Shown here: positions 39,895 to 47,745 of the stretch, piece by piece
Position numbering within the stretch: the stretch's first letter is position 1
Layout of the letters: each line of letters starts with the position of its first letter
Source: an uncultured cyanobacterium
GTDB lineage: Bacteria > Cyanobacteriota > Cyanobacteriia > Cyanobacteriales > CAWUOF01
DNA length: 64,000 nt
Assembly (NCBI GenBank): GCA_963744145.1
Contig: CAVUSO010000001.1
Coordinates: forward strand, 928,001 to 992,000
Reading direction: 5' to 3'
Made by a program: the position numbers and the translations under genes
Notes under the pieces: generated by a model
Seen by the model: the letters and a program-made list of their open reading frames with translations, nothing else
Database searches by the model: none
Told to the model about the DNA's origin: nothing

Positions 39895-41367
39895 TTACCA
39901 TCGGAGTAATTTTAACAAAAACCAAACACTCAAACTAGCGATCGCACCGGTCATGATACTGGTATAAAAAACTGGTGTCAGTACAAAAAAAGTATTCTCT
40001 GGTGGTGGTTGATTTACAATCATTACGTGAGTCGTAATACTACTAGCAGCTAATCCAGCTCCAACACAACCGATGGTAATAGTTAAATTGCGATCGCTTC
40101 TAGTTTGCTCAATTGTAATTATTCCACCAATCATACTAATTACATTTTCCAATAACTTCAAACCAGGAGCTAGATTATTTCGCTCTGACTCCAGTTGTTC
40201 GCGATATTTTTTATCGACGAAAATACTAAAATTTTTTAATAAACTTAAATCACTACCAGTTTCTTCCTCCAACTTTTCCACCCGTTGCTGATAATTTTCT
40301 AAATTTATCTTCATCGTTTGTAATTGAGCATCTAAATCATTTAAAGCGATCGTATAGTCGGCTAAAGTCGGCAAATATTTGATTAACATTAACTCTAACT
40401 TATTTAAACTTATTCTCTCCCTAGTTAGAGCCGACTGAGACAATTGACTAGAACGGGTGAAATTTTTGAGATTTTTTGACAATCCAATCCCTTGCTCAAT
40501 CAAGGTTTTAATACCTGTATAAATTTGTTCTAATTCCGATTTTTGATAACGACTTTGCCAATAAGCAAATAATATCTTATGTCGATCGCAAAATAACCGA
40601 ATTAAATCAAAATTAATCTCCCTCACCTTCTTAGTAATCTTCGCGATCGATTCACCTGGTGGAAACAGCAAAATAATCAAATGATAATTCTCTAATCGGA
40701 CTTGATACCATTCTTGATGCCAATTAGTAGGAAGATGCCAATATTCAAATATAGTCCCACCTAAAAATTTTCCATGTTCCTTAAAATTCGGATTCCATTC
40801 CGCATTTGGTGTTAATTTATTGTAACAATCTCTTGCTAATTGATTTACATCCACATTCCCATTAGCTATTTGTCCCCAAACCAACCAAGTTTGTCCAATC
40901 GTACCTTGTTTATCTGCTTCAATTTCCGTCTTCACATCATGATGATTTAGGGCACAAACAATATGATGTTTGAGAGTGTGTAAAGAATTAATATTTTGCT
41001 TTTCATTCAGACCAGAACAATTCACCTGAAGTGCATAAGTATCACCGAGCTGCACCGGAAAATAATGACCATCTTGAGGAGCTTGAAACTGTTTTGGTTC
41101 AAGTAAAGCATAATCAGCTTCGGGATTTTCTAAATCAGTTAATTCCTTCAGCCTTTGATCATACCAAATTTGGTCAAATACTACCTTCTGCTGAGAACTC
41201 TTTTTAAAATAAATACTATTGATCTGGGCATCAATTTTACTCCAAAACTGTTCTCGGTTACGACTTATTTCTGCGGCATCATCATTTAATCCGTTCCGCA
41301 GATCATAAAGAAATAAATCAACTGTAGGATAGATTAAATCAGTTTGTTCTTTCATGCAATAGGCCAC
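39895..41367 (-). CDS. Hypothetical protein with long helical stalk and two C-terminal TMs (CorA-like topology)
   Basis: Alpha/beta N-terminus, coiled coil, then NLTITIGCVGAGLAASSI and VFYTSIMTGAIASLSVWFLL hydrophobic helices with a basic end; no GMN motif. Confidence 0.75.
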   Translation of the reverse strand: MAYCMKEQTDLIYPTVDLFLYDLRNGLNDDAAEISRNREQFWSKIDAQINSIYFKKSSQQKVVFDQIWYDQRLKELTDLENPEADYALLEPKQFQAPQDGHYFPVQLGDTYALQVNCSGLNEKQNINSLHTLKHHIVCALNHHDVKTEIEADKQGTIGQTWLVWGQIANGNVDVNQLARDCYNKLTPNAEWNPNFKEHGKFLGGTIFEYWHLPTNWHQEWYQVRLENYHLIILLFPPGESIAKITKKVREINFDLIRLFCDRHKILFAYWQSRYQKSELEQIYTGIKTLIEQGIGLSKNLKNFTRSSQLSQSALTRERISLNKLELMLIKYLPTLADYTIALNDLDAQLQTMKINLENYQQRVEKLEEETGSDLSLLKNFSIFVDKKYREQLESERNNLAPGLKLLENVISMIGGIITIEQTRSDRNLTITIGCVGAGLAASSITTHVMIVNQPPPENTFFVLTPVFYTSIMTGAIASLSVWFLLKLLRW

Positions 41368-41395
41368 CTAGATCAACTAGATTGCTACTTCATCA

Positions 41396-44302
41396 CTAGG
41401 AAATTTTTCCAGCGATCGTAAATCCTGCCCAATAATAGGGATGAGCATAAGGTTTTTCAGTTCCTTCTATTTGATTGATACCTCTTAATTGGGTCTTAAT
41501 AAAAAGACGAATAATTTCTTCATCTTCCGGAAGCTTAGTCAAAATCTCTTCACACCATTCTATCAATTGTCGAGCTGTGATATCCCGTAACCACCTTACG
41601 GTCTGATTTAACACTAACTCCTCAGATTTATTTTGCCATAACTGAAAAAATTGCATCATCACCAAAGCACTGATATCAGAGGGTACTGTCCACAAACTAC
41701 TGATCACATGGGAGACACCACTCTTTAAAAAAGCACTGACTAACCCAAAATATTCAGTCTTAATAATTTGGTTTTTAGTAATTGCATTTTCTCCAATAGA
41801 AAGATAAACTAGCTGATAGCTCTTGAGATTCATTTTGACAATTTTTTCAACTCTTAGATGTTCTTTTGCTGATAATACTAAAGCTGATTGACTGGGTTGA
41901 TTGAAGTTATATTCAGTCATGCCAATAAAACTAAAAATATTGTATCCTCCTAATAATGCTTGCACTACTGTTTCCTCAGTTACCTGGTCTCCTGTCATCC
42001 GTTTTGCATCAGCAAAAAGATAGCTCAGATATTCAGATTGCACTGTCGTACCAGAGAGTTCTGTTAGTGGTTGATCATCAGTTTTTCTGTTATTATTATT
42101 AGAGTCAATATTGAGAATATTTGGCATGATATTTCCTTCCTGGTGCAGACTTAGCCCCATTTCTAGACTAGGTAAATAACTAACAGTAAATTTATCTGTA
42201 AATAAAGCATTGAGAGGAAAGCGATGCAAATCCCGATGGGGAATTAGAATTAGGTAATTAATATCCTTCAGAACAGATTCAATCCTAGCAATATCGAGAA
42301 TTTCACCCAGACGCGATATCAATTCTGGTAAATTATTATACCAATTAGATTTTGTTTCTTCCACTTGATTTTCAGATTGGCCATATTCCTGATATTGTTG
42401 ATCCCAATCGTTGATCCAATTCTCAAATTGGATCAACCGTCGGACAGATTCAGGTATTTCTGTTTCTGATATTGCAGTCAGCACTAGCGGTACGATCGCA
42501 TCATCCTTAAAAATAAAAGTCTGCAAAGCTACTGGACTGATGTGCCAGTAAACGATCGCCAGATCAGGTTTCAATAATTGTTTAATTTCTTCTGAGCTAG
42601 GTTGAGGAATATCTTCACCCCAATTAGAGAGTAACCAAGTTAAACAGGAATTTTTACCTTTCTCGGCAGTTTGCCAAGCTTGCTCAATTGCACCAGACTG
42701 GATATATAAATCAACCTGAAGCTGTTGAAAACCTACAAATTTTAGTGCTAATTGTTTTTGACTAGCGGTGGAACGATTAGATTCACCCAGCAAACGGTCT
42801 AATAAATCTGAACCAGGTTGTGCTAATTCTTGAGCTTCTGCTATTCTTCCCAAACTTAATAATGTCCGAATTAGATTTTGCAATAACTCTAAATGTAATT
42901 CAGGTGTTTCAATTTCTGTGAGGGTTTGTTGGGCGAAATGGTAACTTTCGATCGCTTTTTGCCAATATTGATCAGGATCTGAATCTAATCGTCCTTTTTC
43001 ATAGTAAACATTGCCAATCATCAAATGCAATCTGCCCCAACCTACTGGATTAGTATCGAGAAGACAATACTTTAAACCTTCTTCATAATTGGCTAAACTT
43101 CCCTCATTTCCAATTTGATTTAAGTTCGGATTTTGTTCAGTTAACGGACTTGGAGCATCTAAAAAAACATCCTGATTGGTTAAACTACCAACTGTAATCC
43201 CTCGGTTAATCCAAGCTAAAGCCAGATTGGGGTTAATTTCTAAAGCACGATTATAGGAAGCGATCGCTTCTGCTAAACGTTCTAATCTTCTCAGCGCATT
43301 ACCACGAGTATTCCAGACCGCATCTAAATTGGGATTAATTTCTAAAGCTTGGTCATAGGAAGCGATCGCTTCTTCCCAACGTTCTAATTTACTCAACGCA
43401 ACTCCCCGATTAAACCAAGCTATATCATAGGCATGAATAATTGCTACAGCACGATCAAAACAGACGATCGCTTCTTCTAAATTTTCTAAATCACTCAGCG
43501 CACTACCTCGGTTATTCCAAGCTGCTTCATAATCAGGTTTCAGCTCGATCGCACGGTCATAACATGCGATCGCTTCTGCCAAATTTCCTAATTTCTGTTG
43601 CTGAAAACCTTGATTAAACCATCCTTGGGCCTGATCTGGTTCAACCTCTGTTGACTGAGTTTCCCCCGCCGCACTAAGATTAAATTGATTCACCAGAGTT
43701 TGCATAATTAATTGGGGATCAGTTGAATCAAGTCCCATTTGTTGAGCTACGATCTGACGTAAGTTAGGATCTTGTTCCAATCTGACCAATAATTCATCCA
43801 AAGTAATTGCTTCGGGTGGTGGTAATTCCTGGTAGGGTGGTGGATTAATCGCATTAGCATCCGGACCATTATACTCCCAAACTACTCCTGGAGCAGTTTG
43901 TTGAGTTAACACTTGAACTCCAATCTCATAAGCGACCTGTCCCATAGTCCGCAAAGCAGGAGTTCCTTGGATTAATTCACCTAATTGCACCAGTCGAGCT
44001 GCTAATTCATTATTAGGTGTTGTTCCTCCTAACAATCTTTCCCCAAAACTCTGCAACCACTCCACCCATTGTGCTGGGCTAATTCGATGTTGCAAATCTA
44101 AAATATATTTTACTGCCCAGGTATCACCTTTACCGCGATGCACACCTTCGAGCAATTGCATGAATAGATATTCATAATCTGTAGAAGTCAGAGGTGGTGG
44201 AGCGTCCGGCTGAATGTTTTGGGTTCTGCTATTGGAGTTGTTTACCACTGCAAATAAACGTTGCCACAATTTCACCAACCATTGCCAAATTCGCCGAAAC
44301 AT
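41396..44302 (-). CDS. TPR + CHAT domain protein, catalytic dyad absent
   Basis: 34-aa TPRs (EEAIASYDQALEINP), CHAT motifs LILIPHRDLHRFPL, VISSLWTV, HPYYWAGF. Confidence 0.92.
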   Translation of the reverse strand: MFRRIWQWLVKLWQRLFAVVNNSNSRTQNIQPDAPPPLTSTDYEYLFMQLLEGVHRGKGDTWAVKYILDLQHRISPAQWVEWLQSFGERLLGGTTPNNELAARLVQLGELIQGTPALRTMGQVAYEIGVQVLTQQTAPGVVWEYNGPDANAINPPPYQELPPPEAITLDELLVRLEQDPNLRQIVAQQMGLDSTDPQLIMQTLVNQFNLSAAGETQSTEVEPDQAQGWFNQGFQQQKLGNLAEAIACYDRAIELKPDYEAAWNNRGSALSDLENLEEAIVCFDRAVAIIHAYDIAWFNRGVALSKLERWEEAIASYDQALEINPNLDAVWNTRGNALRRLERLAEAIASYNRALEINPNLALAWINRGITVGSLTNQDVFLDAPSPLTEQNPNLNQIGNEGSLANYEEGLKYCLLDTNPVGWGRLHLMIGNVYYEKGRLDSDPDQYWQKAIESYHFAQQTLTEIETPELHLELLQNLIRTLLSLGRIAEAQELAQPGSDLLDRLLGESNRSTASQKQLALKFVGFQQLQVDLYIQSGAIEQAWQTAEKGKNSCLTWLLSNWGEDIPQPSSEEIKQLLKPDLAIVYWHISPVALQTFIFKDDAIVPLVLTAISETEIPESVRRLIQFENWINDWDQQYQEYGQSENQVEETKSNWYNNLPELISRLGEILDIARIESVLKDINYLILIPHRDLHRFPLNALFTDKFTVSYLPSLEMGLSLHQEGNIMPNILNIDSNNNNRKTDDQPLTELSGTTVQSEYLSYLFADAKRMTGDQVTEETVVQALLGGYNIFSFIGMTEYNFNQPSQSALVLSAKEHLRVEKIVKMNLKSYQLVYLSIGENAITKNQIIKTEYFGLVSAFLKSGVSHVISSLWTVPSDISALVMMQFFQLWQNKSEELVLNQTVRWLRDITARQLIEWCEEILTKLPEDEEIIRLFIKTQLRGINQIEGTEKPYAHPYYWAGFTIAGKIS

Positions 44303-44427: not shown

Positions 44428-44450
44428 AAAAAAGGTGGGCATTGCCCACC
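44428..44450 (-). terminator. Intrinsic terminator / REP-like palindrome after RNase II gene
   Basis: Minus strand GGTGGGC-AAT-GCCCACC-TTTTTT just after the stop codon. Confidence 0.75.
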
Positions 44451-44454
44451 CAAT

Positions 44455-47216: not shown

Positions 47217-47745
47217 CTATCTTCTCATATAATTGCTGACTCGATCAAGTAATTTTTTAACTTTTAAATCGAGGGAGTAACCCCGACGGGTAGGGATAAC
47301 GATCGTCCCACTAACGCGATCGTGGAAAGCTTGACGATAGTCCTCATCCACAAAAGCGGTACTACAGTCAGCGATGAGGGGCACAATCAAAATTAAGGGA
47401 GACCCATTTCCTGGTCCAATATTGAGCAAACCGACTAGGGCTAAGTAAGCACAAGTACCTAAAATTAATTCTCGTTTAGCTAGATATTTGAATTTCTGGG
47501 GTTTTCCCAAATCTAGGATCGACTAATTTTAGGTCTAAACTCCAACGTCCCAAGCTTTGTCCCCGATTTTTAAAGACCAAAATTACGCGCAATAGTAGCC
47601 AGATCAGCATAAATCCTAGGATCTGGAGCAAACCGGTCAGGGATGAGATGATTAACCATGTACCCAAGAGATCGATGGCAGTGGCCACGCCCCGCCGCCA
47701 AATTGGTACTCTGAGGAAGCGGATTTTGGGTCTTTCTGTGAGCAT
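47217..47745 (-). CDS. RDD family membrane protein, frameshift near 47488
   Basis: WRRGVATAID and GQSLGRW in 47476..47745; YLAKRE...QAFHDRVSGT in 47217..47510. Removing one A from CAAA restores IQYLAKRE. Confidence 0.85.

Follow-up and report, generated by a model that had tools for sequence, protein, structure and literature searches.

A predicted TPR-CHAT pseudo-protease and its membrane-anchored partner in an uncultured cyanobacterium: a candidate two-gene derivative of a three-gene module

The gene pair and its altered catalytic dyad

The window analyzed here is a 64,000-nt stretch of DNA from an uncultured cyanobacterium (contig CAVUSO010000001.1 of assembly GCA_963744145.1), and its open reading frames (ORFs) and coordinates are counted from its first letter. 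The ORF list reports a pair of co-oriented genes on the minus strand, at 41396..44302 and 39895..41367, separated by a spacer of 28 nt (41368-41395), as the first-pass annotation of this DNA had described them. The first gene starts with an ATG and encodes a 968-residue protein comprising an N-terminal domain, TPR repeats, and a CHAT domain that appears to be a pseudo-protease. The second encodes a protein with two predicted C-terminal membrane segments, hereafter referred to as the partner. Its ORF comprises 490 residues from a GTG start. The genuine start is more probably the ATG located four codons further in (41355), yielding 486 residues and a gap of 40 nt, because an identical public protein has 486 residues and the homologues begin with MxxxxxLIYPT. 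A consensus scan did not find any terminator-like hairpin between the two genes. Both ORFs are uninterrupted, with a G+C content of 35-39%, and since the homologues of either number in the hundreds, the pair is not a chance arrangement.

Pfam analysis of the larger protein reports a CHAT domain (PF12770) at residues 674-965, with E 4.9e-29 and a score of 102.1 bits (cut-off 24), the match covering positions 15-288 of the 289-position profile. It belongs to a caspase-fold region covering residues 621-968 (41399..42442, minus strand) that is predicted to be catalytically dead. Indeed, the His site reads SFIGMT instead of HFTGHG (residues 791-796; 41915..41932, minus strand), Met795 replacing the catalytic His, and the Cys site reads LSIGEN instead of LSACET (residues 834-839; 41786..41803, minus strand), Gly837 replacing the catalytic Cys. 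The alignment used for comparison contains 51 CHAT ORFs of at least 600 residues, each located upstream of a partner homologue. Both catalytic residues are intact in 49 of them, which read HF(T/S)GH and (A/S)CE(T/S), and the other two (L020 and L026, from loci read around partner homologues) have lost the Cys to a Trp and read SAWH(S/T) at this site. A phmmer comparison with the solved chains of the Craspase TPR-CHAT protein places Met795 on His585 and Gly837 on Cys627. This match is weak (E 0.05-0.08), and an active relative of the window CHAT gives the same register against the same chains at E 5e-4. His585 and Cys627 are the catalytic dyad of the Craspase TPR-CHAT protein, in which the C627A and C627S mutations abolish activity (PMC9729208). 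Because Met795 and Gly837 occupy the positions of this dyad, the window CHAT protein is, as judged from its sequence, a pseudo-protease. The first-pass annotation had named it a pseudo-caspase TPR-CHAT on the strength of the same two motifs, and both the domain assignment and the motif readings hold, with the dyad dead in the window and intact in nearly all of the aligned neighbours.

Loss of catalytic residues is common among these proteins. Among the 120 nearest ones, the window's included, the His of the HG pair is absent from 28, the Cys from 11, and both from 7. A sizeable subgroup of these 120 TPR-CHAT proteins, many of which comprise 1220-1330 residues, reads HFTGYV at the His site and LSACEN at the Cys site. 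Having lost the His and kept the Cys, these proteins may represent an entire subfamily in which the CHAT domain is half-dead.

The regions preceding the CHAT domain are shared with related proteins. The first 215 residues (43658..44302, minus strand) form an N-terminal domain without any Pfam family, which starts with MFRRIWQWL..., contains a conserved DYE(Y/F)LF stretch, and recurs, according to BLASTP matches on related ORFs, in TPR-CHAT proteins encoded beside partner homologues. It also heads CHAT-less TPR proteins, including a 368-residue protein of the same genome, and some of their genes directly adjoin partner genes. Outside the window, copies of the domain are found at C1:4835058-4836164, L014:1590-2768, and L020:1858-3153. 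The ensuing TPR repeats (residues 216-370; 43193..43657, minus strand) are detected by Pfam TPR_1 (E 2e-38, four stretches) as well as by matches with TPR proteins of the PDB. They are followed by a helical middle region (residues 371-620; 42443..43192, minus strand) that is conserved in the family, with BLASTP matches in 53 ORFs.

Sequence conservation bears on whether the gene is still maintained. Of the 80 positions at which its 22 nearest relatives do not vary, the CHAT region keeps 64, and the middle region keeps 42 out of 49 such positions. Several of the departures are close to the dyad motifs (S731N, E733D, P735N, H791S, H795M, A836I, and C837G), and most of the scaffold motifs are retained, for instance LIPHRDLHRFPL and PYAHPYYWAGF. 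The closest CHAT relatives in the protein collection are only 51% identical, over the last 409 residues, which points to an old lineage. Since the ORFs are open, the family-invariant positions are mostly kept, and the lineage seems old, the window CHAT gene does not appear to be simply decaying.

The partner protein and its family

The AlphaFold2 model of the partner (mean predicted local distance difference test score, pLDDT, of 80.6; predicted template modelling score of 0.76) exhibits a head of strands and helices at residues 10-235, followed by helices at residues 241-307, 321-370, 375-399, 401-424, 432-452, and 465-489. The α/β head (residues 1-240; 40648..41367, minus strand) has no clear solved relative, and reaches a pLDDT of 90.9 when folded alone with AlphaFold2. 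The stalk (residues 241-424; 40096..40647, minus strand) is made up of four long helices and returns helical matches only. The two C-terminal helices of the model coincide with the only hydrophobic windows of the protein, in which the Kyte-Doolittle mean over 19 residues exceeds 1.4 (window starts 428-433 and 459-471). These two segments (residues ~428-451 and ~459-489; 39901..40089, minus strand) are predicted to form a membrane hairpin with a short loop. In the partner family, a conserved EQT(K/R)SDR motif precedes the first hydrophobic segment, and the C-terminus is basic. The GMN motif does not occur in the partner translation. A soluble α/β head, a long helical stalk, and two C-terminal transmembrane segments without GMN had been proposed at first pass, a layout that the model and the hydropathy profile bear out.

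Sequence searches do not place the partner in any Pfam, NCBIfam, or PADLOC family, and library scans gave only coiled-coil noise. Likewise, the profile of the partner family returns only coiled-coil matches among PDB sequences (E 0.013 or worse). The Pfam family PF26095, precomputed for three partner homologues, was not reproduced by our own Pfam scan. The family itself is large, with 203 matches in a word-indexed search, 925 clusters (50% identity) at E up to 1e-3, of which 764 reach E 1e-10 or better, and 293 loci in species-representative genomes. All the matches that carry an organism name are from cyanobacteria, mostly of filamentous genera. Within the taxonomic order of the organism, 17 out of 41 genomes, its own included, contain a match, with up to five matches in one relative. 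Outside its own genome, the best partner match among the 40 related genomes is 44% identical. The top CHAT match in the protein collection reaches 51% identity, so that no close orthologue of the window pair was found in these two sets. The window partner retains 34 of the 38 family-invariant positions and is as conserved in this respect as the other members.

CorA-like proteins act as membrane effectors in some type III CRISPR systems, and the partner had initially been described as CorA-like. When the whole model is submitted to Foldseek, the top rows are chains of CorA, ZntB, and CmaX (best hit 8tmc_C, E 4.6e-3; probabilities up to 0.92), all the CorA-family rows having E above 1e-3 and template modelling (TM) scores of 0.10-0.20. 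VIA-align superimposes the helices only (residues 270-430), with CmaX at Z 9.5 (116 residues, root-mean-square deviation 3.4), MRS2 at Z 8.3, and the cytosolic domain of E. coli CorA at Z 7.9. Unrelated helical proteins score above CmaX (STAT, Z 10.6; BAG1, Z 10.1), and helical models reach Z values of about 13 by chance. When the head is submitted alone, no CorA-family chain is among the 50 best VIA-align rows, the top one being MupZ (Z 5.3), and the best Foldseek match is YwmB (E 9.8e-3). Pfam reports no CorA match to the partner at E 0.1 or better, and CorA does not occur among the PDB profile matches of the partner family at E 10 or better. The partner and the CorA/ZntB/CmaX proteins share the order of their parts, the partner having no GMN motif, no match to a CorA sequence model, and a modelled head that did not match a CorA head. 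The initial description stands for this order alone, and the modelled partner appears to be CorA-like in overall layout only. An ESM Atlas feature search with the whole partner returned MJ1566_N (0.91), DUF3422 (0.89), and a CATRA cluster (0.88, 174 shared features), all of them leads only, none of which was confirmed, and the same search with the head only did not return any named match.

The three-gene module and the loss of its small gene

Eighty loci around partner homologues, out of the 293 loci in species-representative genomes, were read for gene content. Their usual same-strand order is a TPR-CHAT gene (about 1000-1200 residues), a small gene (~135 residues), and then the partner gene (~465 residues). 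The small gene often overlaps the start of the partner gene. Its product evolves fast, is devoid of any membrane segment, and has neither a Pfam family nor any name other than 'hypothetical'. A same-strand CHAT ORF of at least 600 residues is found upstream in 50 of the 66 partner loci for which 4 kb or more of upstream sequence was available, and two more contain a split one. The partner homologues are thus consistently located beside TPR-CHAT genes.

The small gene follows the catalytic state of the CHAT gene. An intact-dyad CHAT gene and a small gene are found together at 48 of the 80 loci, a Cys-less CHAT gene without a small gene at 2, and neither gene at 13. Three loci have a small gene without a CHAT ORF of at least 600 residues, two of these with a split CHAT gene, and 14 loci end at a contig edge (6 with the small gene, 8 without). 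Hence, the small gene accompanies 48 out of 48 intact-dyad CHAT genes of at least 600 residues, and none of the 16 copies in which CHAT is dead or absent (the 2 and 13 loci above plus the window). A six-frame search of the window did not find any small-gene homologue, the best match (E 0.025) being located inside a kinase ORF.

In a quick tree of the partner family, the joint loss of the small gene and of catalysis spans several separate clades. The window belongs to a clade of 19 rows (Shimodaira-Hasegawa-like approximate likelihood ratio test support of 97), 16 of which lack the small gene: the window, L014, 12 loci from Coleofasciculaceae, and the two Cys-less Oscillatoria loci. The gene upstream of the partner in L014 encodes the N-terminal domain and TPRs, and no CHAT domain. 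Eight of the 12 Coleofasciculaceae loci have no CHAT gene within at least 4 kb upstream, and the other four are cut by a contig end. In three scanned Coleofasciculaceae loci, a gene located just 3' of the partner encodes a TPR-only protein of ~720 residues (L002:8643-10796, L011:7385-9610, and L001:8376-10568; 717-741 residues, about 20 repeats, no CHAT). Its N-terminal end is similar to the one of the TPR-CHAT protein at L052, which suggests descent with loss of the CHAT domain. The two Oscillatoria loci (L020 and L026) represent a second pseudo-protease pair, found intact in two species, with the Cys to Trp change and without the small gene. In Oscillatoria sp. PCC 10802, this pair (L020) is located about 20 kb from an active triad (L015). 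Further losses occur in other clades, in Moorena, in Mojavia, and at L067. The clade of the window pair thus appears, from gene content and sequence, to have repeatedly lost the small gene together with protease activity or with the whole CHAT gene.

The window's own genome contains three further modules, referred to as A, B, and C, which bring the number of partner copies to four. Module A (C1:563491-568040) encodes a CHAT protein of 859 residues with an intact dyad (HFNGHA and LSACET), a small protein of 137 residues, and a partner of 471 residues. Module C (C1:4666107-4671344) likewise encodes an active-type CHAT protein (1109 residues; HFTGHG and LSACET), a small protein of 161 residues, and a partner of 411 residues. 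In module B (C1:3072652-3075679), the CHAT gene is broken into ORFs of 251 and 181 residues, the C-terminal piece still reading LSACET, and the genes of the small protein (153 residues) and the partner (445 residues) are intact. As the active paralogues A and C are present in the same genome, the suggestion made at first pass that the window pair is a decoy or regulator of an active paralogous pair is at least possible. Elsewhere, at C1:1072392-1078864, two tandem ORFs of 185 and 146 residues weakly match the hidden Markov model (HMM) of the small protein (E 4e-5 and 4e-6). They lie between a divergent 549-residue ORF and ORFs of 485 and 755 residues. Because these tandem ORFs have no adjoining partner-family gene and match the HMM, the small-protein family may serve other modules too.

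The genes flanking the window pair are ordinary ones. Upstream of the CHAT gene is an RNase II-family gene with an RNB domain (Pfam), and a consensus scan alone reports a terminator-like hairpin between the two (44433..44451, minus strand). Starting 131 nt 3' of the partner, the segment 35300-39763 (minus strand) encodes a co-oriented hybrid kinase of 944 residues, with the organization dCache-HAMP-HisKA-HATPase-REC, and a co-oriented REC-PAS-GGDEF protein of 456 residues. The pairing of these kinase and GGDEF genes with the CHAT and partner genes is absent from the related loci whose ORFs were listed, and the flanking genes are not recurrent. Further away, at 47217-47745 (minus strand), two short overlapping hydrophobic ORFs of 89 and 97 residues on the same strand may correspond to one frameshifted gene or to two small membrane proteins.

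Known systems, proposed working, and rival readings

Several known systems share features with this module. The CATRA systems also combine a ~500-residue, otherwise family-less protein with a neighbouring caspase-fold protease joined to TPRs, in a multi-gene arrangement of limited phyletic spread. PMC8195603 describes CATRA as a caspase-dependent ternary conflict system, and PMC12657218 terms it 'phyletically restricted'. The CATRA-N and CATRA-C families (PF20269 and PF20270) do not match the window partner at E 0.1 or better, and the CATRA families are not among the best 25 of the 91 Pfam families matched by 21 members of the partner family. A search with PF20269 found no match in the window's genome, but none in 14 control genomes either. 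Moreover, the CATRA cluster of the ESM Atlas lead is mostly actinobacterial, the comparison with CATRA being based on models and descriptions.

The Craspase protease Csx29 shares the TPR and CHAT architecture of the window protein, in addition to the alignment of its His585/Cys627 dyad with Met795 and Gly837. According to PMC9729208, a sensor-activated CHAT protease cleaves a small neighbour (Csx30) in this system, thereby releasing an output. However, the window CHAT protein scores 28.8 bits with the Csx29 model NF041237, against a cut-off of 300, and no gRAMP/Cas7-11 gene, which accompanies Csx29 along with a CRISPR array, is found among the ORFs of the 36-48 kb interval, the rest of the window not having been scanned for cas genes. 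Unlike in Craspase, the protease of the window would be dead and the output would be an unrelated membrane protein. The same source assigns CHAT to a separase-like branch within the caspase fold, and reports that separase is inhibited by its bound pseudo-substrate securin (PMC9729208). The separase-securin couple is likened here to CHAT and the small protein by regulatory logic alone, without any claim of homology. A precedent for the pseudo-protease is provided by the vWA-MoxR systems, in which ~70% of the caspase domains in effector position are reported to be catalytically inactive and are proposed to be regulators (PMC7159879), with no vWA or MoxR genes among the ORFs of the 36-48 kb interval. 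Bacterial gasdermins and their proteases offer a common theme, that of a caspase-like or CHAT protease gene next to a membrane-acting effector, and gasdermin cleavage by TPR-CHAT is raised as a possibility in PMC9729208. The partner returns no gasdermin match from Pfam or PADLOC, and its predicted C-terminal hairpin anchor differs from the soluble pore precursor of gasdermins.

Regarding the interaction of the two window proteins, the first-pass annotation had proposed that they work by binding rather than cleavage. A complex predicted for CHAT residues 371-968 and partner residues 1-400 scores 0.38 (0.39, 0.38, and 0.00 in the three runs), against 0.00 for the best of three controls. The tool grades this as 'weak support', with a run agreement of at least 0% of contacts and a partner pLDDT of at least 77. 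Of 157 solved complexes, 116 attain its mark, as do 2 of 215 mismatches, but scores of 0.60 or less comprise only 18 of these 157 solved complexes together with both mismatches. The proposed binding thus obtains a weak in silico pass only.

We consider that the locus has about an even chance of being a derived two-gene form of the widespread three-gene module, itself found mostly in filamentous cyanobacteria, in which the pseudo-protease would act as a non-catalytic scaffold or competitor. In the usual module, the part formed by the N-terminal domain and the TPRs would sense a signal, and CHAT would either cleave the small protein or be restrained by it, the small protein being a substrate or a securin-like inhibitor. 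This step would in turn control the membrane-anchored partner as the output. The small protein may be tied to the protease step because its gene and catalysis are lost together. In the window copy, the link to proteolysis would have been given up, and the pseudo-protease may serve as a TPR scaffold, regulating the membrane protein through direct binding. Alternatively, it and the active paralogues may be competitors for a signal or a partner that they have in common. The output could be membrane permeabilization, leading to cell death or phage defence, or else ion flux or signalling. We lean towards an output of the conflict or cell-death type rather than a signalling one, by analogy, since systems combining a caspase fold with TPRs are described in this way and several diverged copies occur per genome. 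A more ambitious version, possible but on the improbable side, holds that the triad is a new, cyanobacteria-specific, protease-gated membrane effector, in which the small protein would be a securin-like inhibitor or the substrate, and the partner an oligomeric pore whose action would kill or silence the cell. If so, the window pair, together with the Cys-less pairs of Oscillatoria and the Coleofasciculus loci without CHAT, would illustrate how one effector has repeatedly passed from proteolytic control to control through binding to a TPR scaffold, in a natural series from a protease switch to a pseudo-enzyme switch.

Several observations weigh against the derived two-gene form and the function proposed for it. 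Neither protein matches any PADLOC-DB 2.0 component at E 0.1 or better, the partner belongs to no Pfam or NCBIfam family, and the flanking RNase II-family, hybrid kinase, and REC-PAS-GGDEF genes are ordinary. Of the defence module proposed at first pass, the defence or cell-death role is retained as an inference by analogy. The complex prediction is weak, with one run of three at 0.00 and no interface given. The counts of joint loss are not phylogenetically independent, and the HMM of the small protein was built from the same loci. The partner tree is a quick one and gives the window a long branch (0.69). A candidate cleavage site, R[SNT]K[GS], is shared by 42 out of 51 small proteins, yet all five homologues of the window's genome lack it, and it was dropped as a general feature. 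Finally, the window CHAT is the most diverged of 23 at the invariant positions (0.80, against at least 0.90 for the others), which also fits relaxed selection. The pair could then be the decaying remnant of a former triad on its way to being lost, in which the small gene has been deleted, the dyad has gone under relaxed selection, and no function is left. The clustering of the CHAT changes around the active site, the clearly broken CHAT gene of module B in the same genome (251 and 181 residues), and the failure to find a close orthologue in the 40 related genomes (44% at best) agree with such a remnant. We nevertheless regard it as quite unlikely, since both ORFs remain open although their nearest relatives are just 51% identical, the scaffold motifs and 34 of the 38 invariant positions of the partner are kept, and two species (L020 and L026) harbour an intact analogous pair that is Cys-less and devoid of the small gene.

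Two other readings assign the pair a different function. One of them, in which the module would serve the ordinary physiology of filamentous cyanobacteria rather than conflict with phages (for example, through HetF-like regulated proteolysis in differentiation, in the breakage of filaments, or in the organization of membranes), is unlikely. It would account for the restriction of the named matches to cyanobacteria, mostly of filamentous genera, as well as for the ordinary neighbours and the lack of matches in the defence library. Moreover, the CHAT protease HetF is reported to cleave PatU3 in heterocyst development (PMC9457339), and the CHAT gene all2170 to give a HetF-like phenotype (PMC10811720). 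However, only 17 of the 41 searched genomes of the order, the window's own included, contain a match, and those that do may contain several diverged paralogues (four in this genome, up to five matches in a relative). The frequent losses and breakages and the fast-evolving small protein are also more typical of conflict systems. The other reading, in which the partner is a divergent CorA/ZntB/CmaX pentamer with an ion flux gated by the TPR pseudo-protease, is very unlikely. The top Foldseek rows, the VIA-align Z values of 7.9-9.5 for CorA-family helices, and the shared layout, in which a head is followed by long helices, a pair of C-terminal membrane segments joined by a short loop, and a basic C-terminus, speak for it. 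Yet the Foldseek E values above 1e-3, the TM scores of 0.10-0.20, and the helices-only Z values, which are below the ~13 attained by chance, argue for a likeness of layout. The head alone finds MupZ at best (Z 5.3) and no CorA chain among its 50 best rows, GMN is absent, and no Pfam CorA match is reported at E 0.1 or better. Furthermore, four helices precede the first membrane segment, unlike the one continuous stalk of CorA.

The module corresponds to the type in which a caspase-fold/TPR protease is associated with an effector, an unnamed membrane partner and a pseudo-protease state being its particular features. Two of its three protein families are unnamed, lack a Pfam model, and are not treated in any paper that we found, and no paper describing the module was found in a literature search outside of which lay subscription journals and preprint supplements. 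Genomes of bloom-forming and mat-forming cyanobacteria may carry several copies of the partner family. That the small gene is gone where the dyad or CHAT is lost yields the hypothesis that the small protein is a substrate or an inhibitor of the protease, and the dead, active, and broken copies of the module lie side by side in one genome, open to comparison. If the partner is a death or defence effector, the module would add a caspase-linked system to the immunity and programmed death of multicellular bacteria. If it is not such an effector, the module would still be a clean case of pseudo-proteases keeping a role.

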